Source: Macrostomum lignano (taxonomy: Eukaryota). From it: a DNA stretch of 43,870 nt. Below are positions 7,424 to 43,870 of the stretch, one piece after another (within the stretch, counting starts at the first letter, position 1; every line of letters starts with the position of its first letter). The DNA lies in the NCBI GenBank assembly GCA_002269645.1, contig NIVC01002828.1, positions 1 through 43,870 of the forward strand, written 5' to 3'. The notes below the pieces were generated by a model. That model did not search any database. It had not been told where the DNA came from and was given only the letters and a program-made list of their open reading frames with translations. The position numbers were made by a program, and so were the translations under genes.

Positions 7424-7754
7424 CTGGGGAGTGTTTCATATAATTTACAAGTTACAAGCTACAAGCTACAAGTTTAATAGCTACAAGCTACAAGTTTAAT
7501 AGCTACAAGTTTAATAGCTACAAGTTTAATAGCTACAAGCTACAAGTTTAATAGCTACAAGTTTAATAGCTACAAGCTACAAGTTTAATAGCTACAAGTT
7601 TAATAGCTACAAGCTACAAGTTTAATAGCTACAAGTTTAATAGCTACAAGCTACAAGTTTAATAGCTACAAGTTTAATAGCTACAAGCTACAAGTTTAAT
7701 AGCTACAAGTTTAATAGCTACAAGCTACGAGCTACAAGCAAAAGTGTTACACAA
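7203..7754 (+). repeat. Direct repeat copy 1 (552 bp) of segment repeated at 11035-11512
   Basis: Runs GAACTAGATCATATCC...AAAGTGTTACACAA. Appears identical to copy 2 apart from minisatellite length. Confidence 0.9.
7445..7740. repeat. Minisatellite of AGCTACA and AGTTTAAT units (15/22-bp units, 37-bp higher-order period)
   Basis: 14 TTTAAT-containing units counted. Confidence 0.95.
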
Positions 7755-7765
7755 AGTCTTTTCGC

Positions 7766-10700
7766 CCCAGTGAGCTTTGGGGTTGGAATTTTATAATACC
7801 TAGTGTTGTATCGATTATTTAAAGACTTTCAAGGCATTATTAACGCTGATGCTCCTAATATTTTGCGTCGTGTCATACATAAAGTTAGCCTAATAGATAA
7901 AGTAGGGCGAGAGTTGTAAAATGTCTCTAACGTCAAATGATTTATAGGAAGGGAATTAGGGATGTCGATTCCCCAGGGAATTATCTTATCGGGGACCCCG
8001 GTGAAAAGAAAAAATAAGTTAAAACAGCGGATCACTTAGATTGTAAGTGGAATTTTTTAAACTTTGATTTTAGCTTTGTACTACATGTTCAAGGCGCAGG
8101 GGTAAAAATTTTAAACAATGTTTTTTTAAACTGTATTTGACAATGTGGCATCACGAAATCGTGCGCGCACCTTTATCGGAAAAGTGCATTTGTTGGAATG
8201 CATGCTAAACAGCTACGCTCGTGAGAGGATAATTAATGAATGAGACTGTTTTTATAATCGGAATTTTATTTCTTGCATATATATGTAAATCACCATTTTG
8301 TCCTTGTCTAATAGGGAGTATATGTATGACACCCCCCTATGCGTCAGTGCCTGACGCATGACGCAGCGCTGCGCCTGCGTCAAGCCGTCAACGCAGACCA
8401 ACACAGCAGTCACTAGTCAGTAAGGCTTCTTTTTCCTGACGGGTTTCTTTTCTACGTGCAATTTGCTTGATTGAATGACTTATTAGTGAAAAAACAATCA
8501 AACGTGTATTGTGTTTCAAATACATGTAATGCATTGAAATAAGCAATTATGCGGTAAAAGAGCATAGACAGAGTTTCAATCAGCTTTCTGTGAATCAGTT
8601 TCTTATTTTAATGGCAAAAATTAAGTTACAAATGCATTTTTTCATATTTTTTCTCCCCAGGGTCCCCGGTTAAATTCCCCGGAGAGTATTCCCCGACAAG
8701 CTCCCCGGGGAGCACTCCCGGGGTCAACATCCCTAGAAGGGAAACTACGAGCATAAGTTCTGCAACACATATACAAGTAGCTAAGCATTAATAGACGCAC
8801 TGCACCGATAAAATGTAATGGAATTGCTCGAATCACCGACACCAAGACCCATAAAACTGGAGAAACTGGCAGGATATAGTAGATACATGTAGGTCAGAAT
8901 CAGAAGTGATCATGGGTGGGTGGGTCAAGTGATCATGGGTTCGACCTCGATTGTATTATTCCTTCTTAATCTTATGCAATTAATTGTAAATTAGGTATGA
9001 TATGAAGTAACAGTAATTATCCTTGACCATGCTAGAGTAAAGACAAGTCAAAGTCAAGTTAATAAAAATAGACACACAGTGTAACAATAACAATGGTTTT
9101 TAGAGCCATTTTTCTTGTCTGTGTTTGTCTTTGTACATACATGTACATTTGGGAAGACTTATCTGGACCCAATCCCTTCTTATTCTACATGTACGCTGTT
9201 TTGGGTATGGGGGTTAGAGTTGGGCCGTCTGACACCCCCCTCCCCCCCCCCTACCATAGTGGACTGGAGAGAAAGAAGCACATGCTATCGCTATTGGCTA
9301 GCCTGTCGTTCTCTTTCTCTTTACCTTCTGTCTTGTGTAGCGTACACTATCCAATGCACAAGGCCCAACTTTCCACTAAAGGAAGGTTCATATAGTCCGC
9401 CCATGGGCTTCCTCTTGCTTTCGCGTACACTCAAGGCCACTCACTCTCAACACCAGCCACTAGAGGCTTGTTTTAAATAATCGATCGATAATATTAAATG
9501 TACACTTGAAAGCTTGCTTTGGATCCTAGCAGAAGGGGGAGAAAGTGGCCAAGGCCACCACACCCCACAAGGCAGGCAGGCCGGCCCGAGTGCGATAACG
9601 AATGACAAAAAAATAGAAAAGTACAATTTACACATCAACTTTCAATACAATAAATACAATAATAGGTGCGGTATTAATGACAGTGTATTTTCGCACAAAG
9701 TAGCTACGTTCAAACCACCAGCACGTAAACAGCTAAAATTTCACTGTTTATGAAATTTTATAAAATTTAACACATCATTTTAGATATTGAAAACTTTTAA
9801 AGGAGGGTATTACTGTTGCATGTGACTATAAAATCGTGGTAGGTATAGCTGATGATGAAACTGGTGATTGGTATCTAGCTTTTTTGATAACTTAGCCGGT
9901 TAGACCCCGAAATAGCTATTGTAATTTGTAACGCTGGAGCCAAATACAAATACAATGGAGCAATTAGTTTCTCTCAAATCTGTCTCTGCCAGTGCCAGTT
10001 TAGTCCATAGTAAGTAACCAAAGTAAAATACCCATTAGTGGTCCCGTTTCTAATGTTTATAAATATTAAGCTTCAGTTTACTTTTGGCACAGTATGCAAT
10101 TTTGAAAATTCACCCTAATAACGGTTTGCACCAGCAGGAAAGCAACTATTTTGTTGTTGGAAATCGGATTAAGCAGTCAAAAGAGTGTATTTCTATGAAA
10201 AAAGGTACTTTTTTTCCATTTTTTCAAATATTTAAACAGGTTTCGCTCTTTCAATAAAAAAATCATCGCAGTACCTTAAAGTACAGTTAGTTTGGAATTA
10301 GATGACGGCGTTGAATTGTTTCTTCCATATTCCAAAAATTATAATGAGCACTTTTCCTCAAATCAGTTTGAGATCATGATTTTTAGTCTTTCGTCGATAA
10401 CTTTCTGATTTCAAATGTTTAAGAATTGAAAACTTCCACACTTGTGTATCTTTGAATTGCGCATCAATTGGTGCATAGTATGTATGCTTAACTATTAGCA
10501 GTATAGAAAAAAATGCAAAAAACTGTAAAAGTACATTTTCAATTTTTGCATTTTTTGCAACCAAAGTGCCAACTTTTTGATACAATTGAAAAAAACAACC
10601 CAATAATGTTATGCATCTTAGTAAGGCGCACCTATAACCCTCGAACATTTTTAGCTCGAGTTTTAATGTGCATGAGGAAATGCACTTTTGTAAAGACATA

Positions 10701-11035
10701 ATCTTAAGACAAACATTTCAACTGAAGCCTGTTCCTTTTCTCCGCAGTGAATCCATACAAAACTATACTCGTTAAATAGATCAGATTCTTCTCTTTAAAA
10801 TGACACCTCACTTGTGAAATTCGCACTTGTAGTTTTGAAGTTACAGCAGTTTTTGTGAGATTTTTCTTGTCATTTTTTCGATGCACACGTCTCATATTAT
10901 TATATTCGTCACAAGCCAGACCACCCAATGCGCTTCGCGCATTGGCTGGCTGTTTGTTCCTCATGCTCGGCACTTTGTGCCTCGCGCGTTCGCTCCGCTC
11001 ACCCCACAAACCCAAGGGAACTAGAGCTCACTGGG
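7766..11035. mobile_element. Putative non-coding TIR element with CCCAG termini (CMC/EnSpm-like)
   Basis: Perfect 11-bp inverted repeat CCCAGTGAGCT (7766-7776) / AGCTCACTGGG (11025-11035). No matching 2-bp TSD and no transposase. Confidence 0.45.
7957..8735. mobile_element. hAT-like MITE
   Basis: TIRs TAGGGATGTCGA / TCAACATCCCTA. 8-bp GAAGGGAA at 7948-7955 (one extra T before the TIR) and at 8736-8743. CCCCGGG subterminal repeats. Confidence 0.7.
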
Positions 11036-11512
11036 AACTAGATCATATCCAGGGTCCAACGGGAGTCGGCTGTGGCTGCGCCTGGGACGGACTTGATGTT
11101 TGGCCCATAGATATTTAGTTCACTACTCAGTCAGCTTGTAACTTGTCACTGGATTTACTCATACTCGTACAAATCAGTCTATGACACAAAAATCTGTAGC
11201 ACTTGTAATTTTTTAACTTGTCACTTGTGGCTTGTCAAATCAATGAAACACCCCCCTGGGGAGTGTTTCATATAATTTACAAGTTACAAGCTACAAGCTA
11301 CAAGTTTAATAGCTACAAGCTACAAGTTTAATAGCTACAAGTTTAATAGCTACAAGTTTAATAGCTACAAGCTACAAGTTTAATAGCTACAAGTTTAATA
11401 GCTACAAGCTACAAGTTTAATAGCTACAAGTTTAATAGCTACAAGCTACAAGTTTAATAGCTACAAGTTTAATAGCTACAAGCTACGAGCTACAAGCAAA
11501 AGTGTTACACAA
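11035..11512 (+). repeat. Direct repeat copy 2 (478 bp), including a minisatellite at about 11279-11497
   Basis: 10 TTTAAT units, 74 bp (2 x 37) shorter than copy 1. Confidence 0.9.
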
Positions 11513-11832
11513 CACTGCTTGTAGATTTCAGCCAAGAATCGTACAAGTTTGACAAGCTTGTAACTATTCACTTCATCGTCTATGGTAAAAAACTTACCTC
11601 TTTGGGGTGGTAGAGAGAACGACTCGAAGCTAAAAACAAAACTCATTATCATATAGACTATCGTTTTTTAATGCATTTTTTAATGAAGCTGTTAAGTCAC
11701 GATAAATTGCCATAGATTATGAGCGAGAAATTCACTGTTTTTATTCATGTAAGCAACAAGAACTTTAACAGGAAACAGATCGAGGATATAGCAAAGCAAA
11801 CGAATACCAAAGTACGAGCTATATATTCTTTG

Positions 11833-12825: not shown

Positions 12826-15467
12826 CCACGAGAAGACTGATGGTAAGCAGTGCTTACCATGGCCCAACTCAACTTTCTGCCGACCAGAGTAAATTAAATT
12901 CTATGGCTAAATTGGTAGTATCCGTTCTTGCCGGATATGGTAAGCACTGCTTACCATGAGTATTCTAGGTTTTCTTGTTTTCTGACAATTATAGGCTTTG
13001 CATTCTACATTCTTAATTGTTTCGTCAGTAACGTTCCTTTGTGCATTGGTTCAAAAACACACATTTTGTTCGAAGAGGCTTCAATAAAGTTTGAAATCGA
13101 ATTAACTAATAACAGAGTTAAACAACAAAAACGAGAATGAAAAACCTGATAATATTCTGGCTGATCGAACTTACTGCGCATACAGAGCGTACGGCTCGTG
13201 CACTACAGAAACTATAACTAGTGAAACTAATATAAATTATCAAGAGTTGTGAACTAATTTGAGCTAAAGACAAGAGCCAAAAACAGTAAACAGAAAGGAT
13301 GAAAACTTTAGTTTTAGCAGAAAGTGAGTCCATTCTGCCGATGCTCGTACTTTAACGCTGCGAATGCCAGCGTTGGAAGCAATCTAACAAACAAAGTCCC
13401 GGGCATCCTGGACATCGGCTGCAGAAATAAACTGTGCGCCGGGAACTGGCAGAACTGTAGCACATTCTGCACCTTTTCGTAGGTCTGGGCTGGGTAGGAC
13501 GACCTGGGATTTTCTCCGGAAAATGCTGCTCAGAGACTGCAACTGTTTGCAGCATGGAAGCCGGTCGCTTCCTGCCATTTCCAGTTCGCTCTATCAAATC
13601 ACGGAAGCTGGCTTCGAGATATCTGATAAAAGTATTCTGGCCACCACACTTGCAGTACAGAACCCAAGCGTTGCGCACCATTTGAAGGCACATATGCAAA
13701 CCCAGCTTGTGGAACCATTTTGTTGTCTTTCTGCCGGCATCATAGGGCTGCAGGGTGCCGTCCAGCGTGTCCACTCCACCCATGCAGCGATTGTAAGTTA
13801 GCACACTGCGGCTCTTCTGCACTGCCACATGCTGACCAGCTCGATTGATCTTGACTTTCTCTGCCTTTGACGCAACGTCCTTCGTGTCCAGCAAATACAA
13901 GGTCTTGACTCCACTCTGCTTTCTCTCGACAGCCTTCACAATCAGAACACGTCCCTTCCTCGCGAAAGCTACATTATTCGGAACCACTAAAGCCTGCCGA
14001 AGCTGAGCCGGAACTCCTCGGTCTGGCCTCACGGTGCCCGTCAAGAACGTTGAATGGTCGATAAGGAACTGGGACAACCTGTATGATGTAAACCAGGTGT
14101 CGGTAAATATTCTGTACCCCTGGTCCAGAATGTCCTTGGCCAGCTCAGCTACGATTCGCTCACTGAGAGAAAGATGTTCCCAGTCGTGTGTGGAGCCAAA
14201 CTTCCGATTTTCTTCTGGAGTTGAGTGCACAAGGAAACTGAAGAGATAAGCAGACTTCGACTCACACAGACAGTACATTTTCATGCCGGACTTCGCCCGC
14301 TTTGTTGGAATGTACTGCTTAAAACGAAGTCGGCCCTTAAACAGTATCAATGACTCATCAATGCTCACTTCACATTCAGGCCGGTAGTTGTTCTTGCAAT
14401 AAGTTTGGAGCAGATTCATGAATGGACGAATCTTGTGTAGTGGGTTGGCGCTTGCTTCTTCCCTGCTGTCGTAGAAGCGCAGAAATGTCAGCAGCTGTTT
14501 GAATCTATCGCGAGCTAACGCCTCGGGCTTCTGAAAGTAAGGTATGCAGTGAAAATCGTCTGTGCTCCAGTAGTCATGTAGCTCGGACTTTTTTTCAGGC
14601 CCATGTACAAGTGCATGCCGACTAGCTTTTTCATCTCGCTTGCGGTGCAGTCCCGCCAGCTAGATACAATGGACGGAAGGACGTCCGTCTCAGGATCCAG
14701 TTCCATCAGCATGGTGGCCACCTTGGCGTTTGTCCATTCAGCGAGGCGTTGGAAAAGCTCTTCAGAAAGAAACATTTGTAAAAATAAAGACTTATCCTTC
14801 TCAACATCCTCAGGAATTAAAAAGTTCGGATTGAGGCCAGCAGTTCCGGTAAATTCAAAACATTCTGTCCCTTCATCGGACCCAGGCTCGACAAGTCGCC
14901 AAAAATTCTCAACTTCAGCAGTATCGCCATCTGCAAACTCCTGTTCTTCCTCGCCGTCAGGCCCTTCTATGGTTGGAGGATTGCCATCCAGTGCTTCTTC
15001 GCCAACCTCCTCGCCAGGCTCCTCGTCTATTGTTAAGTAGGAGTCGAGGCTTGCTTCACTGTCAGAGGTCATGTAGTCGATCTCAGAGGCAGAAGCCATG
15101 TACTTTAGGATATCAGTGAGTAAATACTGTGTCAAATTTAGCGAGAAAAGGCTAACAAACAAGATGGTAAGAGTGTTACTGTAAGAAAGCTAGTTTTATA
15201 GCAAAGGGGACTTGCTGTCTGAGCACAGATTTCTATGGTAAGCAGCGCATACCAAGCAGGCAGCAAGTGAAACTGTTTTATTGGCTAAAGCAGTAGTGCT
15301 GTTCATTTCCTTCCCGTCTAGCGTGTCAGTTTGAGCCAAGCTGGATCAGTAAGCCTAGCCAGCAGGAATGGAAGTGACATGCTATGCCAGAAAATATCTA
15401 TGGTAAGCACTGCTTACCAAGCAGTCGGGAACAGACAAATTATGGATTCTGGTTAGGCAGGAAGAGG
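12826..15467 (-). mobile_element. piggyBac DNA transposon
   Basis: TTAA at 12822-12825 and 15468-15471, CC..GG ends. Four subterminal palindromes TGGTAAGCASTGCTTACCA near 12841, 12938, 15237 (variant) and 15402. Confidence 0.8.
13352..15099 (-). pseudogene. piggyBac transposase, about 582 aa, single frameshift in the A7 run near 14588-14594
   Basis: Acidic N-terminus, SIDESLI / FTDTWFTS / GGVDTLD catalytic aspartates, C-terminal CxxC...CxxC...C...C cysteine-rich domain. Shifting frame restores KSELHDYWSTDD...RDRFKQLLTFLRF. Confidence 0.92.
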
Positions 15468-23449: not shown

Positions 23450-24400
23450 TGGTTTCTCCGTGATAGTTAATGGTGTAACAGCTACAGCCGACGGTACAAC
23501 GGTTACGGCTTTTTTGATGAGGAATCACCATCCGACAGGAAATATCCATTTAGAGCGATGCAAAGAGATTCGGAAATGTTTTGCTTCCGCTTCTCAGAAA
23601 TTCTTCTGCCATAGCGCTTCACAGATGCCCTGTGAAATGGTGATAAATTTGAAAATCTATCTATGTACCTTGAGATGAGATAATTCTAATATATGCATAA
23701 CAATACGACGATTTGATCTCCTGCAGACTGTGTCCGGCTTCCGTTAGGTAGTTACGACTGTTGCGCGAATTGAAACTGCAGACCAGCACGTTTTGAGATG
23801 GTCTTCATCATGTCAAATATTGTGTTTTTTTCCATGAACCTGCTTGGGTGAATACCAAATAGCACAATCAGGCCTGACCTTAATTGGCTTCGGAAACAAA
23901 ACATCAATTCCTGGTGGAAGCTTTAAGAGGTACAGGTCCACCGCTTCCACTGCACAATTCGGGCTTTGGTTGCTGAATATTCTAATCTACTTGCTTGTCG
24001 TGCACTTGCCACGGTCCTCGGCAGTGATAGTCTTCTCTGGACCAGCTTGGATCATATCAATACACCTTGTACCATTGATCACTGAAAACTTTAGTGACAA
24101 CACCTTCATGCCCCTAATCCATTCACGACCTCGAAATCCGAAATGATAGACAATATTAAAGAATACTTCATCCTGAAGCCGCACTGGATCCCGTCGATTG
24201 AAGTATTGCTTATGAAGAGTCATGTTCAACTCCGTGATCGCTTTGAATCCAGGTTGCTCGCCCGAAGTTCGTTCTCTTAGCTGGCAACTGACTCTTAGCA
24301 CGCAGCAATAGGTTTCATCACTCAGCCTGAATTCTTCGTTGCCAATGACATCAATGGCGCGTGTCTCCTTTACAAATCAGTGAATGCTAGCCTGAAAGCT
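23450..24400 (-). pseudogene. Crypton recombinase 3, multiply frameshifted
   Basis: IDVIGNEEF, RLQDEVFFNIVYHFGFRGRE, WYSPKQVHGKN, RATVVT, SVKRYGRRISEKRKQNISESL. Confidence 0.85.
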
Positions 24401-25240
24401 ACGAATCGTATCTGGTGCATGGGCTCCACGCGAAGTCTCTGGACCTTTGGCTGACATCGCGCAGCACCCTGGCAGTCTGGCTGAAGCCTTTGATGAACGG
24501 ACGGTAAAATCCTAGCATCCCGAAAAAACGTTTCACGTCCTCTGCTATCGCTGGACTGGGCATGTTGTGGATAGCATCGATCTTTCCAGGATCAGGCGCG
24601 ATGCCCTGCTCGCTAACCAGGTGTCCGAGGTACAGCACTTGGCGGTGTGCGAAGGCGCTTTTCGCTCGATGCAGCTTGAGCCCCGCGTCTCGCAGCCGCT
24701 GGAAGACCTGCGTCAGCTTCATCAGGTGTTCGTCAAACGTCCTGCTGAAGACAATGATGTCGTCGATGTAGGTCAGCACCGCCTCCCAGGACAGACCGGA
24801 AATCACCAACTCCATGAGCCGCTGGAACGTCGCCGGGGCGTTGCACATCCCAAAGCCCATCTTACAGAACTGCATCAGACTGCGAGTCGAGTAGAATGCT
24901 GTCTTGTGCCGGTCCTCCTCCACAACTTCCACCTGGTGGTAGCCTTGCCGGCAGTCAATAGTGGAGAACCCAAAGCACCCGACGAGCGCGTCCATGGCCT
25001 GCTGCTGTTGCAGGTGCGGCAGCGGGTACGCGTCCTTGACCGTGCAGGCGTTCAGCTGCCGCCAGTCCGTGCAGACCCTGATGTCGCCGTTCTTCTTGCG
25101 CACCACCAGCACAGTAAAGTTGTGCCGCACTCGGATATCCTTGCCGACTGAAACTTCTGCCGCCGTCAGGCCAAGACAGCTCAGCCTGGAGCCGTCCACG
25201 GAGATCGGCAAGGCGAGTTCTGCAGTTCAACCTAGCTAGG
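24399..25240 (-). pseudogene. Ty3/Gypsy pol fragment: protease tail joined to an open reverse transcriptase domain
   Basis: VRKKNGDIRVCTDWRQLN, DAYPLP, GYHQV, KTAF, FGMCNAPATFQRLM, YIDDIIVFS, YLGH. No LTRs. Confidence 0.92.
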
Positions 25241-28901: not shown

Positions 28902-30377
28902 CCCCTTGCAAAGCGGGTGGGAATAGCGCGAAGCGGTCCTCGGATTTCCCTCTTTCTGCACGAAAAGGGTCTATGGTATAGGTATATTATTAAATGACTT
29001 CCTTAATAAATTTTGTTTATGGTCAAAAAGTAAGTGCCCGAGGAATCAAGATTTCAGCTTCACTTTTTGAACGACACTGGCATTCTATATATTGGCTCAG
29101 TATTCTTTGTCTCAAACTTGTCTGCTCGTCTATGGGTAAACTTTATTGACGTGTGCAGATTTTGCACTCAATTTCGGCAATCTGCATTCAAATTCAGAAA
29201 ATTTTTATTTATTAAACGTAAAACGAACCAAATGTCGTCCAATACATGTACAGTGTCATAGGGAACAAAAGCGGAAAATCAAAGTCACGTCAAGTGTGGC
29301 CCTTCAGTCCTCAATGATGTGCATCCTGGCCAGGCATCTCGGTACAAAGCTGAAGCAGTATTGTACCACTGGAGACACTTGTCCTGAGTGACGCTGTCGT
29401 TCACTGTTAGATCGGTGAAGCGCATCAGCTCGTCCCTTCGATATTTAGCCAGTGTACGCCCAGCGCGAGCTTCGTCGGATGGATTGATGAAAACGGATGG
29501 CTGTATCTAGGGAGTCGACGGAACTCAGCCAGCCCCACAACCTCTTGTAATTCAGCGTCATTATGGCTGCTGACATGATCAAAAATAGGGTATGCAAGTT
29601 GGTGCGGCGAGGCCATTTGAGCGCTACCCATCAAAATTTGCAGAAATTCAGCGAATCTCTCCTTTGTCATGCCACAAGTATACGCTTGATAGTGGATCAG
29701 ACCAATCTGAGGGGAAACAGCGACGCAGATGGTGATGCGAGTGCCCTTTTTGGCTGGAAACGGTTCTGTTATTCTGTAGGCCGGTTGACCGCGGAGCGAC
29801 CTACCCTGTTGACGTCGCATCAAGGTGTCGAATGCGAATTTATCGATGAACACCTTGGGAGCATTGATAACATCGGCCGAGCACCACCAGTTACAATAAG
29901 CTTCACGCTCTGCTAGGACTGCCGAGGAATCGAGTTCTGAGGACACGTCTCGAACAAGTTTGATAGTGTACGCATGGCCCTCCAGTTTTCGGCTTAGTGT
30001 AGTCATCGAAACAGCTGGGGGGGGATCTTTCTCGAAACTATTGTAAGTTCTATGGTAAGTGCAGGCGTAAGTCAGAACTTTGCGCTTGGCGTAAGACGGG
30101 TCGTAAAGCTGTTTCTCGAAGCTAACCTAGAGTTCTCGCAATTTACGCAGTTCGCAAGTTATCGCGAAGCGAAAAAATGTTGTCTATGGCCGAAGTGGGC
30201 AACGATTCTAATGGTTTTTGTCTGCTTCAGTATATACTAGCAATTAGACTATAGAATTCGATTTAGTTATATAGATTCTTTTTGTACATATTGATGCTTA
30301 ACATTAATTTCAAAGTCAATAAAAGGACTTCTTTCGGCACTCTTCTCCGGCTAACGAGGACTAACGAGTATGCTAAA

Positions 30378-31436
30378 ATGGATTTTCTGCTTGTGACTGC
30401 GCTGCTCAGGCAAACCGCCGACCGTGCACTGGGACGATATCGTCAACTTCGGGATCATACCGACCCCTTGTGCATGCGCGATACCGAATTAGTTGACCGT
30501 TACCGCTTTCCGCGTGTCGTAATTTTGGACATCGTATCACTTGTACGAGAAGATATTCAGCGACCAACGAGGAGAAGCAACGCCATGACTCCCATTTTGA
30601 TGGTGTGTATTGCTCTGCGATTCTTTGCTAGTGGTGCATTTCTTCGGATCATGGGGGACACATGTAACACCGGAATTACTTCCGCCTCTCGTGCTGTTGG
30701 CATAGTTTCTGCAGTGCTGGCAAGCCACCTCACGGAGTTTGTTAGTTTTCCAAGAAGCCACGCTGAACTGAACCATACAATAGCTGGTTTCCATTCAATA
30801 GCAGGATTAACGCACGTCATTGGTGCCATTGACTGTACTCATTTCGCCATCAAGAGGCCTAAAAATAACGAGCACGTGTTTGTGAACAGAAAATCGTTTC
30901 ACTCAATCAATGTGCAGGCCGTGTGTAACGCATCAATGTTATTCACTAATGTTGTGATTCGCTGGCCCGGTAGTACGCACGATTCATTTATATTCAGCAA
31001 CTCGGCATTGAAAGAAATTCTATCAGAAGGGCGAGTGGTTGGAGTCCTCGTTGGAGACAGTGGCTATCCGCTAAGGCCGTACCTTATGAAAGTATTCGAC
31101 ACCCCCAGAGACGCACGAGAGACAGATTTCAATCGGCGGCTACGACAAACTCGAGTGAAAATATAATGTTCCTTTGGGATTCTGAAGTCACGTTTTCAAT
31201 GTTTGAATCGCCATTCTGCTAGTCTCCGATTCACTCCCAGCAAATGCTGCAAAGTAATGAGCGCATGTATTGTGCTGCACAACATTGCAACGAGCAGGGG
31301 TGTTCCTTTAAATGTGCCTATCCAGCATCACCCGAATGATGACACGGACGATGTTGTTGTTGACGATGAAATTTGAGCTGGAAGAGCGGAGAGAATTCGC
31401 ATCATGAATGCAATACAGGCAAATCTTCATGCCTAA
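30378..31436 (+). pseudogene. Harbinger transposase with TAA replacing the catalytic Glu codon (31164-66) and a late TGA
   Basis: DRYRFPR, IALRFFASG, IGAIDCTH, RKSFHSINVQAVC, RWPGSTHDSFI, LVGDSGYP, RVKI*CSFGILKSRF, CIVLHN. Confidence 0.92.
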
Positions 31437-31672: not shown

Positions 31673-32386
31673 CTACATATTCCTTGTTTCAATAGCCAAA
31701 CGCGCTCTCTCGATTGCCAGTCGCTCACGCTCTACAGCCAGCCGCTCTTTCTCCACTGTCAGACGCTCCTTCTCGACCTGCATTCTCTGCTGTTCACACC
31801 TGTAAATGCCTTCCATGTCGCGAGAGCATTCTCGAACTCTCTTTGGTGCACTTGCAGCCGCGAGGTCAGGTGGGTTTTTGACCGGGCTAGAGCGTCGAAC
31901 AGGAAAGTCGTTCAGCAGATTGTCTTTCGCCATCTTCGCGGCCGCGAGGTCAGGTGGGTCATTGACCGGGCTAGAGCGTCGAACCGGAGAGTCGTTCAGC
32001 ATTGATTCGTATCCACCAGAGACTCCAGAGATGCTCTCTGGGGCCATCATTGCAGCTGCATTCTGCTCAAGTGGAGTCAGCTCTGAAACTGTGGGTGGTC
32101 CACCGCCAGTAGCCACTTTGTCTTTCCGTACTAGGGCTGTCTTTGCTTTGACGTTGGACTTCACGTCGCACCACTTCTTCCTACATTCTTCGCCTGTACG
32201 TTTATTTCCTCCGATCACATTCACACGAGCTGCGATGGTCTCCCAACAGGCCTTCTTTCTCCTCTGCATCTCAACCTTTTGATCCTTTGAGTTAACAATG
32301 TCCAAGTATTTGTTGACATAGCTAAGTAATTTTTCTATTTCACCGGACGAAAAGTTGGGCTGCCTCTTGGATGGGTTAGACGACAT
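31673..32386 (-). CDS. Harbinger Myb/SANT-like DNA-binding protein, intact, 237 aa
   Basis: RQPNFSSGEIEKLL...KKACWETIAARVN...RTGEECRKKWCDVK...TGGGPP, coiled-coil tail. 84-bp (28-aa) internal duplication. Confidence 0.9.
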   Translation of the reverse strand: MSSNPSKRQPNFSSGEIEKLLSYVNKYLDIVNSKDQKVEMQRRKKACWETIAARVNVIGGNKRTGEECRKKWCDVKSNVKAKTALVRKDKVATGGGPPTVSELTPLEQNAAAMMAPESISGVSGGYESMLNDSPVRRSSPVNDPPDLAAAKMAKDNLLNDFPVRRSSPVKNPPDLAAASAPKRVRECSRDMEGIYRCEQQRMQVEKERLTVEKERLAVERERLAIERARLAIETRNM

Positions 32387-32979
32387 GTTCAATAGTGTCT
32401 TGGCTAAAGTTGAACTTGATTTGGCTTGACTAAAGCTTCACGTGCTATGCGATTAGTGCTTTATGTGCGTCTTACGACTGATACCGAGCAGTCGTAGGGT
32501 TAAGATCAACCTTACGAAAGACCATTAGACATACGAACGTTTCGAGAAACAGTCTTTTGCGCAAAGTTACGAACTCGTAAAGTTGCGATCAATCTTACGC
32601 ATAGCTAACTTGCGAGCCCTTCGAGCAACCCGCAAGTGTAGCTTACCCAACTTACGTCTATGGCCGATCGTAAGTTGCTTTCGAGAAAGACCCCCCTGGT
32701 TTGTCCGGAAATCTTATGCGCAGTCGATCATTGATTCCTTTTAGCGTCAGAACAGGATTGTTTTCCAGTAGTTCAGTACAATGCTGCAGCATCTCCTCAT
32801 CAAACTTCGAGTACCGCCTTGCGCCCTTGGGTCGTTTATATCGGCGGCCTGATCGAACTATTGAATAGGCGGTGGCTCTCTTGATTTTCATGAGCTCGAT
32901 AAAACGAGACCGATACTTAAGGGAACTGAGAAACAAATGCTGCCGCTCGCACCGGGATTAGGCACCGAGGCCTCTGGGC

Positions 32980-34070: not shown

Positions 34071-35500
34071 GTACTGTAAGCTTCAATTTAATCGCAGATA
34101 CGGAAATCAGACTTGTGAGACTGAAAATTTTTTTGTCTATGGTCGACACTTGTTGGCATAGCGGATTTCAATTTAATACTGGGGGATCAATTTGATCATT
34201 CTAATCATATAACGTTAGATATCCAGTGCTATAACACAAGTCGTTTACTTATCGTTGAGAAAAACTGAACACAAGAAACAAATAAACGCTTTAGCGCTGG
34301 ATGTCGTCGAGTCAAAAAAGTTTAGATGACTGGCTGTCTGGCGATGAAGGCTGGAATAAGCCTCAGCATCTGCCGGTACCAGCCTCCGCATTTTGCAACG
34401 GTCACTTCAAGGGTTGCGTCCTCTGCAAACCTATGTAGGACACGGATTTGCCACTCTCGTAGCGAATGACCATCAGGCGGAGTGTCGAGCTCTTCTAGCA
34501 ATGTGGTTTGATGGCTGCCTTCAGGCAGGCGTGCGCGTTCTTCACACGATTGAGGAATGGAGAGTATGGAGGCAATGTCACCAGGCGCCAAGCGGGCTGA
34601 AATTGATCTGGGATTGTCACTCCATGATGAAAACGGGCTCCATCCATGTTCACACAGAACTCCTCGCCATCAGGTACATCACCACGACTCGTCACGCTTT
34701 TAACCAGATCATTGATCAACGTCTGGAACCTGGCTGCCGTCATAGTTTCTCCGAGGATCATATGATGTACCAGGCCGAGATTAGGTGTAATTGCTTGCAT
34801 GAAGTTCACTTGCACTCCACGTTGCATGGTAACTTTAAGTCTAGCCTTCTTGCCCCTTATGCTGCGAACTTGAGTCCGACGTGTGTAGATGTTAAAACCT
34901 TCCCCTCGATGAAAATCAAGTGAATCTGAGGGGACAATCCAGTCGACCCCTGAGCAAACTCTTGCCGCAAAATTCGATTCTCTGCAGAATTTCTTGCGAT
35001 TGGAATGTCGGCATCTGGGCTAAGGCATTTTAGAGTGATGAGCTGCTCGTTTAACATTCGGCTTACAGTTGAGTCACATACGAGCGTACTTGCAACTCCA
35101 GATCGACTTCGCGAAGCTTAAGCTTCATTTCTCGCAAAGTTAGCTGAGGGTTTTCTTCGATTCATTACAGCAGTTGCTGCACATGAGCGTCAGTAAGTTT
35201 CACTTGACGAGCACCTCCTCGACTTAGTCGGTTCCGGCGACCAATGAGTTCGTACCGCCTTCGAATCGAGTAAACAGTATGGACTTTCACTAACAAGCTT
35301 GTTAAAAACCAGTTACGATGACAGTAAAAATGTGCATTGAATACATAAAGTGATCGAATTGATTCCCCCAGGATTAAATTGAGCTCCGCTATGCCAACGA
35401 GTGTCGACCATAGACAGAAAATTTTCAGTTTCGCAAGTCTGATTTCCGTATCTGCGATTAAATTGAAGCTTACAGTACCAACTAGGCCGCAAAAAAGGAA
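34071..35500 (-). mobile_element. IS630/Tc1-like element A, decayed transposase
   Basis: TIRs ...GTACTGTAAGCTTCAATTTAATCGCAG... The left end lacks the outer 25 bp or so. IEENPQLTLREM, MDGARFHH, LPPYSPFLN. Confidence 0.85.
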
Positions 35501-35952: not shown

Positions 35953-36962
35953 AGACTAAATAAAGAAGCTTGGAATTATAAAAAATATATTGTCAGCAGA
36001 TCAAATTGTCGTCTACATGACAGAACTCCAGTACAAACTGTCGATTCCTTTTTGCGGCCTAGTTGGTACTGTAAGCTTCAATTTAATCGCAGATACGGAA
36101 ATCAGACTTGCGAGACTGAAAATTTTCTGTCTATGGTCGACACTCGTTGGCATAGCGGAGCTCAATTTAATCCTGGGGGAATCAATTTGATCATTTTATG
36201 TATTCAATGCACATTTTTACTGTTATCGCAACTTGTTTTTAGCTTGTCTTTTACATCATATGATCCTCGGACAGACTATGACGGCAGTCAGGTTCCAGAC
36301 GTTCATCAATGATCTGGTGCAAAGCGTGAAGAGTCGTGATGTACCTGGATGGCGAGGAGTTAGTTCTGTGTGATCATTGATGGAGCCCGTTTTCATCATG
36401 GAGTGACAATCCCAGATCGATTTCAGCCCGCTTGGCGCCTCGTGACATTGCCTCCTTACTCGTCGTTCCTCAATCCTGTGGAGAACGCGCACACCTGCCT
36501 GAAGGCAGCCATCAAATCACATTGCTAGAAGAGCTCGACACTCCGCCTGATGGTCATTCGCTACGAGAGTGGCGAATCTTTGTCCTACATAGGTTTGCAG
36601 AGGACGCAACCCTTGAAGGGACCGTTGCAAAATGCGGAGGATGGTACCGGCAGATGCTGAGGTTTATTCCAGCCTTCATCGCCAGACAGCCAGTCATCTA
36701 AACTTTTTTGACTCGACGACATCCAGCGCCAAAGCGTTTATTTGTTTATTGTGTAGTTCTGTTTTCAGTTTTTGTCAACGATAAGTAAGCGAATTTTGTT
36801 TCAACACAGGATATCTAACGTTATATGATTAGAATGATCAAATTGATGCCCCCAGGATTAAATTGAACTCTGCTATGCCAACGAGTGTCGACCATAGACA
36901 AAAAATTTTCAGTCTCGCAAGCCTGATTTCCGTATCTGCGATTAAATTGAAAGCTTGCAGTA

Positions 36963-38616
36963 TCGCTTTTGACGCTCTAGATAAGACTTTAGACATTCAA
37001 AATAAGACTGCATAGGATCGCAAGCAAGGCCAGGCTAGCCACGGCCAGAGCATGCCCAGTCTTGGCTGCAGGAATGGCTTGGCCATAGACTAAAAAATGG
37101 AATATCAAAATGAGAATAAGACGCTCAATATGAGACCGGGAGTGAACGTAATTTATTTGCTTTTTGGCAGTCACCATACAAACAGCTAAGGAGAAATTAG
37201 GCAATAAACAAGAAGCAGAATAGCATATCGAAATGTTTAGTCCCTCACTGAAGTCAGCCTGGCGGACTGCGTTAGAAGGCCATTCGATTTAAGCACCTGC
37301 CAAAGTGCCTCTGACAGCGGAGTTCCCATCTGGCCGCCTTCTCAGCTGTGATGACGAGGCCGACTGCCTCCCGTGCAATCCGCTCCAGCAGCATGAAGCG
37401 CCACTCCTCTTGTGTGAAATCTGCAGGTGGAGCAGCCTCTTCCTCGACTAGCTCAGGGTTCGCCAGCATCTGGCGAATGCGCGCCTTGAGTGCTGAGTTC
37501 GCGAGCTCCACAGGATTGAGGAAATGCGAGTATGGTGGCAGAATCCTGATGGAGATCTGGTTCTGGAGCTGCTGAGGGACCCTCGCCGCACGATGAAAAT
37601 TTGGCCCATCCATCAGGATGACCCATTGGGCTCCCTGGTCCAATTGGTTGCATCGCTCGCACAGGGCGTCCACAAACTCTTGGAAGCGAGCAACGGTTTG
37701 TCCACCGCGGTAGACATTCGAGTGCAGGAGACCAAACTCAGTCGCAATCGCCATGCACACCGAGACATTTGGCCCGCGTTGCGTTGTCACAGTTCGCCGA
37801 ATAGGACGGCCTTTCAGCGCACGACCCTGAGAGCGCCTGGTCCAGAGATTGAACCCGGTCTCGTCCAAGAAGACAGTGCGAGTCTCTTGAGCCAAATTCA
37901 GCATGAACATGGCGTATTCGTGCCTGGCTTCGATATTTGCCTCAGAATTTGTCCTCATCCTCACGTCAGTGCCTTTGACAGCCAGCTTCACGGTGTGTAG
38001 CAGACCGTGCAGCATTCGGTCCACGCACTTGTAGCTGACTTGCGGCTTTTCCGGAAACTGCGTAGCCAGACGTGAGGACATTTCCTTGAGTGTGAGGAAG
38101 GGATTTTCCTCCAGCGTCTCAGTCAGGAAGTCTCTCATCTCGTTGTCAGCCTTGCAATTTTCTTCTCTCCGACCGCCACGAGGTAGGGATTCAACTCTGC
38201 CATGGAGGCGGAACTCCGCAGCGATCCTAAAGGCGGACGCTCTCTTGATCTTGAAATTTGAGCGGCAGCTAGGATGGTTGATCCATTGTTTACTGCGTCG
38301 ATCAGACGCTGACGGTCTGCTGCAGGAATCGATGATGCCATCACAGTGAAATCCAAGGGGTCAGATGCAACCCAAGGGGTGAAGAAGGAGAGCTGGCTGA
38401 GGGTCAGAGGGTTAGAGCGATATCTGAAGGCTTTCACACTCAGTCTCATATTGAGCGTCTTATTCTCATTTTGATATTCCATTTTTTAGTCTATGGCCAA
38501 GCCATTCCTGCAGCCAAGACTGGGCATGCTCTGGCCGTGGCTAGCCTGGCCTTGCTTGCGATCCTATGCAGTCTTATTTTGAATGTCTAAAGTCTTATCT
38601 AGAGCGTCAAAAGCGA
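36963..38616 (-). mobile_element. Young IS630/Tc1-like element, 1654 bp, about 175-bp near-perfect TIRs
   Basis: TIR TCGCTTTTGACGCTCTAG. TA TSD at 36961-62 and 38617-18. The empty site is reconstructable from 35470-35490. Confidence 0.95.
37272..38341 (-). pseudogene. IS630/Tc1-like DD33E transposase, about 356 aa, one 1-bp frameshift near 38255
   Basis: N-terminal HTH, LPRGGRR linker, VFLDETGFN, ILMDGPNFH, LPPYSHFLNPVE. 33 residues between the second D and E. Confidence 0.9.
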
Positions 38617-38882
38617 TACCAACTAGGCCGCAAAAAGGACTATTCATCCAGCAAAACGCTGAAGACTTTAACGAACGTGTAAAACAAAACTATTGTAAAC
38701 AAGAGTAACGGAGGGAGGGAGTGTCTCTTTCAAGGGAGCCATTGCGGTTTAGTCATTTATGTCATCCGTCAGTGGCCTGAAAGCCTTAAGTCGTTGCTTG
38801 TTGCTTGTTGCAGATGGAGGTCACATCAAGACAAGATTTCTGTTCTGACGGCTGCTAAAGTCTGACTATAGAATCAATCAGA

Positions 38883-39165: not shown

Positions 39166-39391
39166 TTTCACTTTAGACAGCCGGAACTTCAGTTTAGACA
39201 CTTTTAGACTGGAGCCCCGAATCTACATTCACTATCGACAAACTCCGTTTCAGTATCGACAGCTAAGCTTTGTGGTGCTACACTTCTATCTATTTATATA
39301 GGCAAGTAAGGAAACGCACATCCAAATCTAGGCGAAACTCCCTTTCACTTTCGATGAAGAGTTTAAGAGTGGTGATCAGTCACTCAAAAAC

Positions 39392-39407
39392 TCCCACTTC
39401 TAGACAC
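39392..39407 (-). other. Primer-binding-site-like sequence (tRNA-Leu type)
   Basis: Minus strand GTGTCTAGAAGTGGGA versus the recalled Gypsy Leu PBS TGGTGTCAGAAGTGGGAT, one inserted base. Confidence 0.5.
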
Positions 39408-39409
39408 GG

Positions 39410-40279
39410 GGGAACAAGTGCCTAGGTATTTATCTGTTCAAATAACTTACTTCAGCGGATCCTCTTGGGGTCGGCAGCCGGTGGAGTTCTGTGGCGCGTC
39501 GGGATAGCAAGCTTGCTGAGCGGTTACGGCGACCGGTTCCGGTGAACAACTGTTTTTCTTTGGTGTCCTTAACTTTATCTGTGGGTCGACCAAACGAGAG
39601 CGAATCAGAACTTCTTAACGGTCCTCGAGCTCGGAATTAACAGTAGAACGTGCGCCCTAATGAACAATCGAATTCTCTAAGTTTCTGTGATAGGTCCTCC
39701 TGAAGGGCGTCTTCTTCGTTACGTCCGAAACGTAACGGATAACTCAAATCAAATCAATAATCCTCTAGGAATATATCCTAGGAAACAAGGAGGCCTTTCT
39801 CAAATGTGTCGACAATAAACGGCTCTCGTAAACTCAATAATTCAACTTACTATCACTAACAATCAAAGAAATGAATCCGGTAAACGCTTACCAATTGTAC
39901 AAGTGTGGTCCCTCAGAGATTGGTCTTCTTCTTTGTTCCTTCAGAGTCTTCTTAGAGACCGCTCTGAGTCTGAATTTTTGACTTGAATTTTCACTTATAT
40001 TTATAGCAAAATTTTGGAGAAAAACCGGTTTGGGATTGGGTATTTACTTAGGTCAAAAATGTTTGATTAAGCGGTCATGCATGTTTGAGCATTACCATAT
40101 ATGGAGTTAAACAAATACAGCTGTTGAAATCCGGTTCCTTGATCAAACAATGTAGGGTTCTAAATCATTCTGTTTGCGCGTGATTCCTAAAATAGATATG
40201 ACTCATTTTGAAAGAAATTGACTTCCTTAGAATATTACTTTAAGTAGAGCATTACGGTATGGTCTAATAACTCTCTACA
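39410..40279 (-). repeat. LTR of a Ty3/Gypsy-type element (left boundary approximate)
   Basis: Begins TGT just after the PPT. Contains promoter motifs and a splice donor. PBS-like site follows. No clean terminal CA seen. Confidence 0.7.
39998..40205 (-). promoter_or_regulatory. LTR U3 promoter: AP-1 site, CArG box, TATA box
   Basis: TGACTCA at 40199-40205, CCATATATGG at 40095-40104, TATAAATA (minus) at 39998-40005, in the expected order for minus-strand transcription. Confidence 0.55.
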
Positions 40280-40282: not shown

Positions 40283-40313
40283 TCTCCCCTTTTCACGAAA
40301 AATTCGTCCCGAA
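40283..40313 (-). other. Polypurine tract
   Basis: Minus strand TTCGGGACGAATTTTTCGTGAAAAGGGGAGATAT-TGT, the usual Gypsy pre-LTR configuration. Confidence 0.8.
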
Positions 40314-40472: not shown

Positions 40473-41072
40473 TTAATAGGAAAGCGTATTATTCAGTATA
40501 TCGTTTACTTTGGTTGTCAATCTCGCGAGTGGCCACAGTAAGTGCTGTATCGGCGTAAATTGTGTTGATTCGGTGGCGTTGAGGAATTCCAGGTAGATCT
40601 CTTCAGTTGTACTCGTAGTATTTATTGGATGCGCCGCATATTGACGTACCAAGTCAAAAAGATATTCCAAATGGTCTCTCTTGTTGAATGGTATTGGCCA
40701 GGTTCGTATAGCTGTTGCTAGTTCCTTGGCCGTCATACTGTCCATGGTCTCCTTTGTAAGTTGGATCTTTGGTAATGTTGTTGTTCCGGCGTAAATTTCC
40801 TTAGATATTGGCGCTGCACAAGTTATGCAATGCTTATAGTCGCGGCACCGAATTTTTAGAGCACAATCTCGGCAGACCCAGTGTCCGTTGGCGCACATCC
40901 TTTGTTGCGGTGTTGTATTGCATACCTGGCACAGGGTAGGTGGTGCGCGGCATAGCGGGCATTTGTCTATTCTATCCGTTGTGCAGCAGTTATAGCAGAA
41001 CTTATGCCCATGCTGACAGTAGACATACTGTTCAGTGTCTTCATAACAAACAATGCACTCGTCGCTATCCAT
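40473..41072 (-). CDS. Double RING-finger protein 2, 199 aa, putative E3 ubiquitin ligase
   Basis: C6-C9-C19-H23-C26-C29-C38-C41 and C48-C51-C60-H64-C67-C70-C82-C85. Intact ATG to TAA. Confidence 0.85.
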   Translation of the reverse strand: MDSDECIVCYEDTEQYVYCQHGHKFCYNCCTTDRIDKCPLCRAPPTLCQVCNTTPQQRMCANGHWVCRDCALKIRCRDYKHCITCAAPISKEIYAGTTTLPKIQLTKETMDSMTAKELATAIRTWPIPFNKRDHLEYLFDLVRQYAAHPINTTSTTEEIYLEFLNATESTQFTPIQHLLWPLARLTTKVNDILNNTLSY

Positions 41073-41144
41073 GTCTGAAAATGGTCAATTTGATAAGTAA
41101 TATCTGTGCAAGAATGGTTGCAATATCTGTGGGTGCATGGTATT

Positions 41145-41795
41145 TTAATCAATTTCTGAAGCGGAACTATTATAGTCATATGATTCTTGGGGTGGTAATA
41201 TATAAGACAAGTCCTCATTACGCAGAATGAGTGCAGGTAGAGCTGTACAGAGGATGGGGCATGGGTGAAAATTCATATCGTTAACAATTTTAAACAGCTT
41301 ATGTTCAATTTCTTGTGGAGATAATTGCCGGAGTCTAGAACCGTAGGAAGAGGAATAGCGAACGAGGTATTTACGTGTTTTATGAGCAGCACGTGGTATG
41401 GGCCATGATCTGAGGCGGATAATTATAGCATGTGATGGAAAAAGAGCATAAGTGAATGGGTGAAGCTGTAGGTTGTAGTCCGCTTGAATGCATGCAAGTT
41501 TGTTGTTAACTTTAGGTAAAGGGGTGGCATCGCATATAGGACACTGACAAATGGAGCGATAAGCAAGCTTCTTAATACATTGTGTGCACATAAAATGTTG
41601 ATTTAAGCAATATTGTTCAGTGCGCCAGGAGTTGCATATCATGCATTGACGGAGATTACCTCGACACATAGGGCAATTTTTTAAAGGTTTTTTGTAATGT
41701 GCAAGGCTTAAGCAAGAACCACACACCTGGTGTCTATTGACACATATACAAGGTAGTTTACATGAAAATTCTCCGAGACAGATAGGACAATCCAT
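41145..41795 (-). CDS. Double RING-finger protein 1, 216 aa, putative E3 ubiquitin ligase
   Basis: C3-C6-C18-H22-C25-C28-C41-C44 and C51-C54-C63-H67-C70-C73-C85-C88. Intact ATG to TAA. Confidence 0.85.
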   Translation of the reverse strand: MDCPICLGEFSCKLPCICVNRHQVCGSCLSLAHYKKPLKNCPMCRGNLRQCMICNSWRTEQYCLNQHFMCTQCIKKLAYRSICQCPICDATPLPKVNNKLACIQADYNLQLHPFTYALFPSHAIIIRLRSWPIPRAAHKTRKYLVRYSSSYGSRLRQLSPQEIEHKLFKIVNDMNFHPCPILCTALPALILRNEDLSYILPPQESYDYNSSASEID

Positions 41796-41926: not shown

Positions 41927-43708
41927 TTAACGAGGTCTTAGGTTGTACGTATGACCGACAGGTGGTGCGTTTGTTGTTTGTGTTTCGGCGTGTGCAGTGG
42001 CAATGTGTTTATTTGTTGTTTTTGTGTGGTCTGGATTTTGTAGGTCTGGGAGGAATGTAGTGTCGTTAGTGATACGTTTTAGACGTTGAATGTGAACATA
42101 GAACTGAGGTTGATGTGGATCCTGGATATTAGCGAGGCGTGCTGATACTAGAGAAGGCTTAGGTAGGTCTCGCTTATGTCGTTCTATGACATCTTTTCTC
42201 TGATAGGTTCCATTTACTACCTTCAGGAAAACATTCTTATCCATATCCTTAAGCGCGATTGGTATTTCTTGGTCGGAGAGGATTAGTTGCTCGTCCTTGT
42301 TTTTACATTTCAAGTGTGTGTAGCTTGGTTGCTTTGGAAATGTAAGAGCCAAATCTCCTGAGTCGGCAAGGAAGGTGTTAGATAGCAGTTTCCCTTGAAC
42401 AGTGTGATATTTTTGCAGCTTGCAGTCAATTTCAGTTTTTACTTCCCATGCAGTGAAATATTTGCGGGTTCGGCTGGGCTCCTCATATCGGGAATCCGAT
42501 CTATATTCAATTTGGTATCGATAGTCATGGAAATAAATCGGTGCTAGGGGTAAATTTTGAGCTTCTTCTTTGTTGTAGTTAGGGGTAGAACAATATCCAG
42601 AGCTGTAGTGACACTGGTCGAGTGGTAGCTGTAAGGATTCCATGTTGTCAAATGGATTGTGGTAGAATAAAACATTTCGGATGAGGTAGCTATTGTAGAC
42701 TGAGTATGTAGGCCATCGTGATTGATGATAATGGACATATCTTCCATCGGCTACATTTTTTGTGCGAAATAGCTGTGCTCCGCTGGCGGACGTCTCATGA
42801 AGTTTTAATTGACCATCTTCGGAAAACAGAGTTTGATTCCACCGAAGGCATTCTTCTTGTGATACCATCATCGAAGTTTGCCAATACCTGATTCGGTTCC
42901 ATTGTACCAGCCAAACCTTTTCAATTTCATCCTTGTCTCGGAAGCACACAATTCCCATTTGTCGATGCTTCTTTGTATTTGCTTTGTATATTTCAATAGT
43001 TAGTGGTAGTGGCTTGGTTTGGTTTGTCTTAAAGTAACTGCATTTGATTTCCGTAGGAATCTTGTAAATGACTGGCTGGATGTCTCCATCAGTGGGACAG
43101 ATCATTGGAGATGGAGACGGCAGTACCGTGGGAACAATTGCCATCATCAAGATCGTGAGGAAGCATTGCAGTAGCGGATGTTTTTTCTTTCGTCTTGTTG
43201 GTACTGGTGGAGTGTCTTCAATCTCGTCATGACTATCTTCAGGATACGGCGGAGGAGTAAGGCGAGTCGAAAAGTGCCATTTGTTGGAACATGGTAATGG
43301 TGTGGGTGGCTGCGATTGCAACATCGGACGCATAAAGTTGGTTGATTTTGATATATTGGTAAGATGTGTAGTTGTATTCTCATCAGTTGGAGTGTTAACC
43401 GGTTCCATTATTGTTATCGGTTCATCATATTCGCTTTCATAGTCTAGGTTCATTGAAACATATGTGTCATCCTCCGTCTGTACGAACTTTTCATCTGTCG
43501 AATGGTTAGATTGTGTGTTCGTGGCCTTGTCATGTTTCCATTTTTCGTGGACTGGACTAGGGGAGACAATATTTTCATAGTCTGGTTCCTGTGTTGGAGG
43601 TGTTTCTGACAGGTCTATATCGTCGACTAGGACCTGCAACATGTCAACGCTTTCTTCAAAGATGTTTTGAGAAGTTGCTGGATCTCTGTCTTCTTCAAGT
43701 GTTGTCAT
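41927..43708 (-). CDS. env-like glycoprotein of an LTR retroelement, 593 aa, no C-terminal transmembrane anchor
   Basis: Acidic P/T-rich N-terminus, RRKKK plus hydrophobic segment (aa 179-196), Cys-containing ectodomain starting PMICPT...YKIP...C, furin-type RHKR and RLKR, terminal HTYNLRPR. Lies upstream of the PPT/LTR. Confidence 0.7.
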   Translation of the reverse strand: MTTLEEDRDPATSQNIFEESVDMLQVLVDDIDLSETPPTQEPDYENIVSPSPVHEKWKHDKATNTQSNHSTDEKFVQTEDDTYVSMNLDYESEYDEPITIMEPVNTPTDENTTTHLTNISKSTNFMRPMLQSQPPTPLPCSNKWHFSTRLTPPPYPEDSHDEIEDTPPVPTRRKKKHPLLQCFLTILMMAIVPTVLPSPSPMICPTDGDIQPVIYKIPTEIKCSYFKTNQTKPLPLTIEIYKANTKKHRQMGIVCFRDKDEIEKVWLVQWNRIRYWQTSMMVSQEECLRWNQTLFSEDGQLKLHETSASGAQLFRTKNVADGRYVHYHQSRWPTYSVYNSYLIRNVLFYHNPFDNMESLQLPLDQCHYSSGYCSTPNYNKEEAQNLPLAPIYFHDYRYQIEYRSDSRYEEPSRTRKYFTAWEVKTEIDCKLQKYHTVQGKLLSNTFLADSGDLALTFPKQPSYTHLKCKNKDEQLILSDQEIPIALKDMDKNVFLKVVNGTYQRKDVIERHKRDLPKPSLVSARLANIQDPHQPQFYVHIQRLKRITNDTTFLPDLQNPDHTKTTNKHIATAHAETQTTNAPPVGHTYNLRPR

Positions 43709-43870
43709 TTCTTTACGATCCTGGAAATTGTCATCTCGGTGAGTTTCCGAAAGATTGTCGATCGTCGGAACTTTAAATAGATTGCTTTGTTGCTTAGAAA
43801 TAGTTTGTTGTTGTCTTTTGTTTTCTCGGAGACTGGACTTGCTTTAGAAGAGGTAGGAATGGGTGGATCT

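Follow-up and report, generated by a model that had tools for sequence, protein, structure and literature searches.

The two open reading frames at positions 40473..41795 are genes of a gag-env-pol Ty3/gypsy element in the flatworm Macrostomum lignano. Both are intact on the minus strand, as the first-pass annotation had it, and each encodes a double-RING protein, here called RING A and RING B, with all four C-x3-H motifs present. The backbone of the element is already published, while its accessory cassette of paired or tripled tandem-RING genes, with the accompanying evidence of selection, exchange and splicing, appears to be undescribed. The window analyzed here is, in a genome of 764 Mb, an entire contig of 43,870 nt, the end of which cuts the element, and it contains the following parts:

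43181..43870, minus strand: C-terminal spacer of Gag, containing a PPPY motif and truncated where the contig ends; 98.9% identical to the full-length copy C2596
42143..43180, minus strand: N-terminal half of an envelope-like glycoprotein, from a hydrophobic signal segment to an RHKR furin-type site
42138..42142, minus strand: junction left by an internal deletion of 4.7 kb; microhomology of 5 nt
41927..42142, minus strand: final ~70 integrase codons, a remnant of the deletion, matching the pol end of C2596
41846..41895, minus strand: conserved block of non-coding sequence between integrase and RING A, with a candidate acceptor (ACAG/CT) and a short inverted repeat; putative role
41145..41795, minus strand: RING A gene, 216 amino acids, with RING1, RING2 and a helical C-terminal domain carrying a WP motif (open reading frame, AlphaFold2, dN/dS)
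41075..41081, minus strand: splice acceptor of pyrimidines and CAG, 2 nt upstream of the ATG of RING B, joined to the LTR at a GT..AG boundary in one contig of run X6
40473..41072, minus strand: RING B gene, a paralogue of 199 amino acids with the layout of RING A (open reading frame, Pfam zf-C3HC4_3, AlphaFold2)
40284..40293, minus strand: polypurine tract, from the sequence
39355..40279, minus strand: 3' LTR of 925 bp, TG...CA, with a TATA box at 40005
~39891 and ~39450 (donors) and ~39579 (acceptor), minus strand: LTR splice sites; the copy from which they are used is the 5' LTR, situated outside the contig
39351..39354, no strand: 3' copy of a 4-bp target-site duplication; flank and duplication are as in the insertion on contig C301

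The internal deletion has removed the C-terminal half of env, the protease, reverse transcriptase, RNase H and most of the integrase, and the frame upstream of the RING genes in the window is consequently a fusion of gag, half of env and the integrase tail. The junction is shared by five of the ten copies fetched. Among these ten, two full-length copies measure 11.3 and 11.6 kb, five copies of the internal-deletion form 6.87-6.89 kb and one further form 4.7 kb; for the remaining two, no LTR pair was found in the stretch retrieved. A DNA search with 1,501 nt returned at least 43 matches (40 of 115 candidates were scored), and nine of the matches listed, counting the window itself, round to 100% over all 1,501 nt. 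LTR pairs of the window family are 99-100% identical, copies of this family are more than 99% identical to one another, and 4-bp target-site duplications were found in all 12 copies checked at both ends. The window copy was considered as an independent insertion, and this was rejected as its flank is that of the C301 copy over all 1,805 nt compared. At this twin locus the LTRs are 100% identical, and the window copy is thus intact because it is young and not through selection on that copy. Its intactness amid decayed neighbors, which the first-pass annotation had noted, was therefore dropped as a sign of selection, which was instead tested between families.

Full-length copies have the order LTR-gag-env-PR-RT-RH-IN-RING A-RING B-LTR. 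The Pfam domains of C2596 follow the pol order PR-RT-RH-IN, as in Ty3/gypsy (Metaviridae), and the TG...CA LTRs, primer-binding site, polypurine tract and target-site duplication that Ty3/gypsy requires were all found. In some copies, single frames of 2,502-2,538 codons run through gag, a signal segment, a furin-type site and a transmembrane segment before reaching the protease, and the gag CCHC knuckle (zf-CCHC) lies in C2596 upstream of the region that the window has kept. The envelope gene thus stands between gag and pol, as in GAG-ENV-POL errantiviruses; the rest of the gene in C2596 gives a hit to Pfam Monjiviricetes_fusion that falls below the cut-off (E 2.6e-5), and the resemblance of this envelope to the Bryozoa C2b rows in the available part of PMC13524379 is by eye only. 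The gag-env-pol domains of the full-length copies bear out the earlier view of an envelope-bearing, retrovirus-like Ty3/gypsy element. The RING genes had also been placed after env and before the polypurine tract. The polypurine tract and LTR do follow them, but in full-length copies they come after integrase, and the placement after env arose because the deletion joins the N-terminal half of env to the integrase tail at 42138-42142.

A protein search of the genome gave at least 139 matches to the RING genes (150 of 186 candidates scored), and the linkage to gag-pol that the first reading had proposed to look for in other copies was found: at six of ten diverged loci, two or three RING genes follow immediately after a matching pol. 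The integrase region is 71-98% identical at these six loci. Of the other four diverged loci, a single one retains an integrase fragment, and LTR pieces but no pol occur in the stretch at the remaining three. The six RING-bearing reverse transcriptases form one group in an 11-row tree, with support of 92/96, slightly below the starred threshold. Moreover, LTR or integrase-end sequence is present no more than 1.5 kb away from 29 of the 30 best RING loci, which shows the family to be element-borne; a host gene cluster was rejected on this ground, and no free-standing, host-fixed RING copy was found among these loci. RING-gene matches also cluster, often broken, among element fragments on contigs C272, C1405, C2121, C87, C1130 and C4009, where old insertions may have piled up in nests, for instance as source loci of small RNAs.

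RING A and RING B are 24% identical across 181 residues (E 3e-13) and share the motif RSWPIP/RTWPIP, in agreement with their description as diverged paralogues. Each has two C3HC4 fingers five residues apart in addition to the WP motif. RING B passes the Pfam cut-off for zf-C3HC4_3 (E 7e-8); the most frequent Pfam hit is Sina_RING, found in 13 of 16 family members at E <= 0.01, mostly below the curated cut-off; and the best solved-structure match of the family profile is the RING of SIAH1 (E 3.5e-5). The C-x3-H spacing, found in all four fingers and called unusual in the first-pass annotation, is the ordinary spacing of SINA/SIAH proteins and adds to this likeness. The proteins differ from SINA/SIAH in that, in both predicted models, a second RING and a helical domain replace the zinc fingers and the TRAF-like beta-sandwich, and on the Sina_RING model the SIAH-like loci of the host itself far outscore the element RINGs.

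Structure prediction, another of the steps proposed at the outset, gave confident AlphaFold2 models (pLDDT 92.3 for RING A and 88.7 for RING B) in which both fingers fold as RINGs. In the model of RING A, residues 1-48 and 46-99 each align with solved RINGs at ~2 Å (Z 4-5.5). Both fingers combine the eight zinc ligands in C3HC4 order with a predicted RING fold (rmsd ~2 Å), and the ligands are kept although overall identity is only 20-40%. The arginine after the last cysteine pair is present in RING1 in 20 of 20 rows and in RING2 in none of 20, where one row has lysine; a further row has no RINGs, and two rows are near-duplicates. According to the accessible text of PMC11992055, such a linchpin residue closes E2~Ub or favors its closed state, and there are RING proteins that are inactive pseudoligases. 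Since RING1 keeps the activating arginine and RING2 does not, RING A and RING B are predicted from their sequences to be E3 ubiquitin ligases, which we consider probable. The C-terminal ~100 residues are all-helical in both models, and a fold search with the modeled domain gave no clear match (best Z 5.9, helical bundles). This domain changes faster than the RINGs (24% against 63% identity for RING A, window against C1063).

The same protein features bear on what such proteins might do for the element. Arenavirus Z is a RING matrix protein, and a comparable role in assembly or budding, in which the RINGs ubiquitinate or scaffold the element's own Gag-Env polyprotein, would suit an element with an envelope and a PPPY motif in its gag-env spacer. 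RING2 can be superposed on Lassa Z (Z 5.0, rmsd 2.2 Å, 48 residues), although this match ties with those to ordinary E3 RINGs and reflects the common fold only. RING A of the C282 and C240 families (L076:5197-5865 and L083:3686-4354) starts with MGNAxS, which we take to resemble an N-myristoylation signal, but an MG start is found in just two of six RING A proteins and is absent from that of the window. As sister clades with an envelope have no RING gene, we regard an assembly role as unlikely.

A role as E3 ligases tuning host cell survival or stem-cell state has a precedent in another flatworm, the planarian, where the Gypsy element Burro1 protects stem cells from apoptosis through a protein with BIR and RING domains (B-IAP), as described in the available text of PMC13465017. 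However, no BIR domain was detected by Pfam in any of the 16 members examined, the two RINGs and the helical domain accounting for the whole proteins, and the best RING loci sit in element context with no host-fixed copy among them. We consider this explanation quite unlikely for the genes of M. lignano.

dN/dS across copies, likewise suggested in the first-pass annotation, was estimated by the Nei-Gojobori method for 14 pairs of natural copies, which are not independent of one another, and revealed purifying selection between families. dN was significantly lower than dS in 11 of the 14 pairs; omega was 0.12-0.30 in nine of these, including 0.24 for RING A of the window against the C583 family, and dS was saturated in two. 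Three near-identical pairs were uninformative (0.42, 0.47 and 1.28). For comparison, omega of the integrase was 0.05 in three pairs. All informative pairs, drawn from few lineages, were purifying, and there was no sign of positive selection among them. The RING genes and pol differ in their divergence: the C583 and window families are 96% identical in integrase, 85% in RING A and 32% in RING B, and between C282 and C240 dS is 0.5 in integrase and 1.4-1.5 in the RING genes. On these sequence comparisons, RING genes appear to have been swapped between lineages, with the cassette moving apart from pol.

Homologues were also sought outside the genome. Among 1.84 billion protein representatives, 167 matched at E <= 0.001, most of them on one RING only, and four were below 1e-30. 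One of the four is a UniRef entry labeled Macrostomum lignano, near-identical by eye to the C282-type RING B; the other three, as well as P0005, P0020 and P0153, come from short contigs. The identity of P0003 to any sequence scored in the M. lignano genome does not exceed 31%, and P0002 groups with RING A (100/99), indicating that both gene types exist elsewhere. A word-based protein search gave no match at E <= 1e-5 with the in-genome alignment and two proteins with a wider alignment. The atlas neighbors of RING B are giant-virus RING proteins, all below 0.9.

These results weigh on the notion that the RING genes are passengers, that is, captured host sequence that is intact merely through recent insertion. 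The identity of more than 99% within the window family and the repeated deletion of the RING genes would fit with it, but it is largely refuted by the purifying selection between diverged families, and the conserved splice acceptors and zinc ligands and the homologues of both types outside the genome speak against it as well. We hold it to be extremely improbable.

Expression was examined by mapping contigs of four runs from four studies, the RNA status of which is a software guess, on one natural copy. A GT-AG intron of ~310 nt in the LTR (window 39579-39891) is removed in contigs of all four runs, which supports those runs being RNA. In the C1192-type LTR, the sole AATAAA lies inside this intron. 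In one contig from one of the four runs, a donor at LTR nucleotide 821 (GAA/GTAAGT) is joined to an acceptor (TTTTCAG) 2 nt before the RING B ATG, with only 29 nt on the short side of the joint; none of the at least 43 genomic DNA matches starts at this acceptor. A YAG triplet lies 0-2 nt before the ATG in seven of seven second-type ORFs, compared with none of six first-position and none of four third-position ORFs. Upstream of RING A, all six regions compared contain the conserved block, and a candidate acceptor is located ~75 nt from the gene; no splice to RING A was seen in the contigs of the four runs. The strongest joint, with 3,658 nt skipped, was rejected as a splice because it matches a 3.2-kb deletion derivative in the genome. 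Downstream of the TATA box, no ATG occurs in any of the four LTR types, where 10-12 would be expected in each, a lack that gag translation alone could also select for. Taken together, the sequence signals and the contigs suggest that the RING genes are likely translated from spliced subgenomic RNAs.

Splicing raises a further alternative, namely that the proteins control the element's own RNA (splicing, export or stability) with the RINGs serving as interaction modules. The retroviral RNA regulator Rev and CERV of Cer1 offer models, and CERV serves this purpose in Cer1 according to the available portion of PMC10309623. An element that splices, here within the LTR in all four runs and to RING B in one, needs an export route for its unspliced genomic RNA, and the conserved non-coding block before RING A has a short hairpin. 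Yet no RNA-binding domain was detected in Pfam or fold searches of the family, and the invariant linchpin arginine suggests E2 activation instead. RING-less lineages also multiply, although a supply in trans could cover their need. Control of the element's RNA is in our view distinctly improbable.

The losses are extensive. In 15 of 18 C282-type copies RING B is lost and RING A truncated, and three copies keep both; the 18 were hand-picked, mostly for their absence from the list of protein matches, and the proportion is thus biased towards losses. RING A is cut at two breakpoints, shared by 12 and 3 copies, and several of the 15 reduced copies have pol frames of more than 2,300 codons. Furthermore, a 3.2-kb derivative of the window family had neither RING gene at three of three loci checked. 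This derivative consists of an LTR, the first ~290 gag codons and an LTR (L124, L125, L126, on C3022, C70 and C1130); its loci have distinct target-site duplications, and its junction occurs in four of four runs. RING-less copies with long pol frames, together with the 3.2-kb derivative, indicate that the RING genes are not needed in cis, which is compatible with proteins that act in trans or with a benefit under some conditions only.

We propose that the RING genes are errantivirus-like accessory genes, and that the predicted E3 ligases made from spliced RNAs remove host proteins that limit the element, a reading to which we give an even chance. An AUG-free leader from the 5' LTR would be spliced to each RING gene. 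RING1 would bind and activate E2~ubiquitin through its invariant arginine, while RING2, lacking this residue, may be a structural or partner-binding module, and the faster-changing helical C-terminal domain would select the substrate, a host protein limiting the element. The RING proteins would act in trans, and this would explain the spread of copies that have lost the genes. That the substrates belong to the silencing or antiviral factors is suggested by analogy with viral E3s and is the weakest step of the mechanism. Herpesvirus ICP0 and Vif have anti-defense roles of this kind in viruses. A broader version, which we put forward tentatively and by the same analogy, is that a lineage of complex enveloped invertebrate retroviruses encodes a tandem-RING ligase family of its own, made from spliced subgenomic RNAs and both duplicated and swapped between lineages, and would use it to destroy silencing or antiviral proteins of the host in trans, with RING-less 'cheaters' depending on it.

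More distant elements were inspected for related genes. A RING match was found in none of nine gag-env-pol or Gypsy loci with integrases 33-39% identical, and envelope-bearing elements here therefore manage without RING genes; in six of the nine, another long ORF occupies the slot. One sister clade (integrase 34-36% identical) has a different conserved ORF of ~260 amino acids after integrase (L110:5798-6595, minus strand; L116:9148-; L121:5704-6504; L123:4955-5764, minus strand; and C368 at L118/L119), which is 40-75% identical among members and is accompanied by an env between gag and pol where seen. Searches of Pfam, PDB sequences and a protein atlas gave no useful match for this ORF, and a likeness to SUMO proteases found no support in any of the three. 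In a third gag-env-pol clade (L114/L115, C362), integrase is followed by an open frame of 366 codons for which Pfam gave no match. Since the post-integrase slot of sister clades is filled by unrelated genes, the elements resemble complex retroviruses whose accessory cassette can be exchanged.

The nearest published relatives of the backbone are the GAG-ENV-POL errantiviruses with HSV/gB-type ENV, reported from Platyhelminthes, Nematoda and Bryozoa in the accessible text of PMC13524379, with which the present elements share the Ty3/gypsy pol order, the env between gag and pol and multi-copy recent insertions. Mlig_errantivirus_2 in that source agrees with the present elements in all 12 nt of the primer-binding sequence and resembles the C282-type subfamily in LTR length (~864 nt), the comparison covering these features only; its entry of 10.6 kb is ~1.1 kb shorter than a C282 copy bearing the RING pair. 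The main text of PMC13524379, as far as available, does not contain the terms RING, zinc finger, ubiquitin, accessory or splicing.

The statement that no Gypsy family is known to encode its own paired RING proteins held in one respect and not in another. No report of stand-alone tandem-RING genes in LTR elements was found in the openly accessible literature searched, but B-IAP of Burro1 is an earlier case of a RING carried by a Gypsy element (PMC13465017, in the part available). The giant planarian Gypsy element Burro1/GYPSM1 has RING/BIR and other ubiquitination or apoptosis modules, judging from the accessible sections of PMC13465017 and PMC6431247; the RING is within a captured IAP (BIR and RING), and the extra domains are part of a polyprotein of 4,873 amino acids (PMC6431247). 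Unlike Burro1, the elements described here have two to three separate genes for proteins of ~200 amino acids, each with two RINGs, a helical domain and no BIR. Family-specific post-pol genes expressed from spliced messages are likewise found in the bdelloid rotifer ORF3s (PMC5408684) and in CERV of Cer1 (PMC10309623), but these encode esterases, exonucleases, membrane proteins or an RNA-export factor, going by the portions of both papers available. The ORF3s are diverse and spliced, none is a RING protein, and RING and ubiquitin are absent from the accessible text of PMC5408684, as are the terms ORF, zinc, splicing and ubiquitin from that of PMC12801592. With viral RING E3s (ICP0 and those of giant viruses), structural similarity is weak (best E 0.004), does not extend beyond the RING and involves no full-length homology, and their anti-defense role can serve for the element RINGs as an analogy only.

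Accessory proteins for which a biochemical activity can be guessed are rare among LTR retrotransposons, and the RING proteins are in addition small and confidently folded. Their families are recently mobile and apparently transcribed in a laboratory-tractable flatworm, and their substrates would point to the factors by which an animal whose adult stem cells are pluripotent keeps enveloped retroelements in check.

Other mobile sequences are present in the window. A DDE_Tnp_4 transposase frame (30267-31166, plus strand) faces a Myb/SANT-like gene (31673-32437, minus strand), a pair that is presumably of the PIF/Harbinger type. A Tc1-like DDE_3 transposase (37272-38360, minus strand) lies between inverted repeats of 187 nt (36960-37146 and 38433-38619), and further DDE_3 remnants were found at 29425-30126 and 34495-35019. 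A DDE_Tnp_1_7 (piggyBac-type) transposase in two frames is located at 13352-15189 (minus strand), and a fragment of an unrelated reverse transcriptase at 24399-25226 (minus strand). Two frames at 1532-3227 (plus strand) have weak WD40/beta-propeller matches and are perhaps host-gene exons. Finally, two copies of a tandem array with a 37-nt period (7203-7830 and 11035-11623) have 300 nt of identical sequence.
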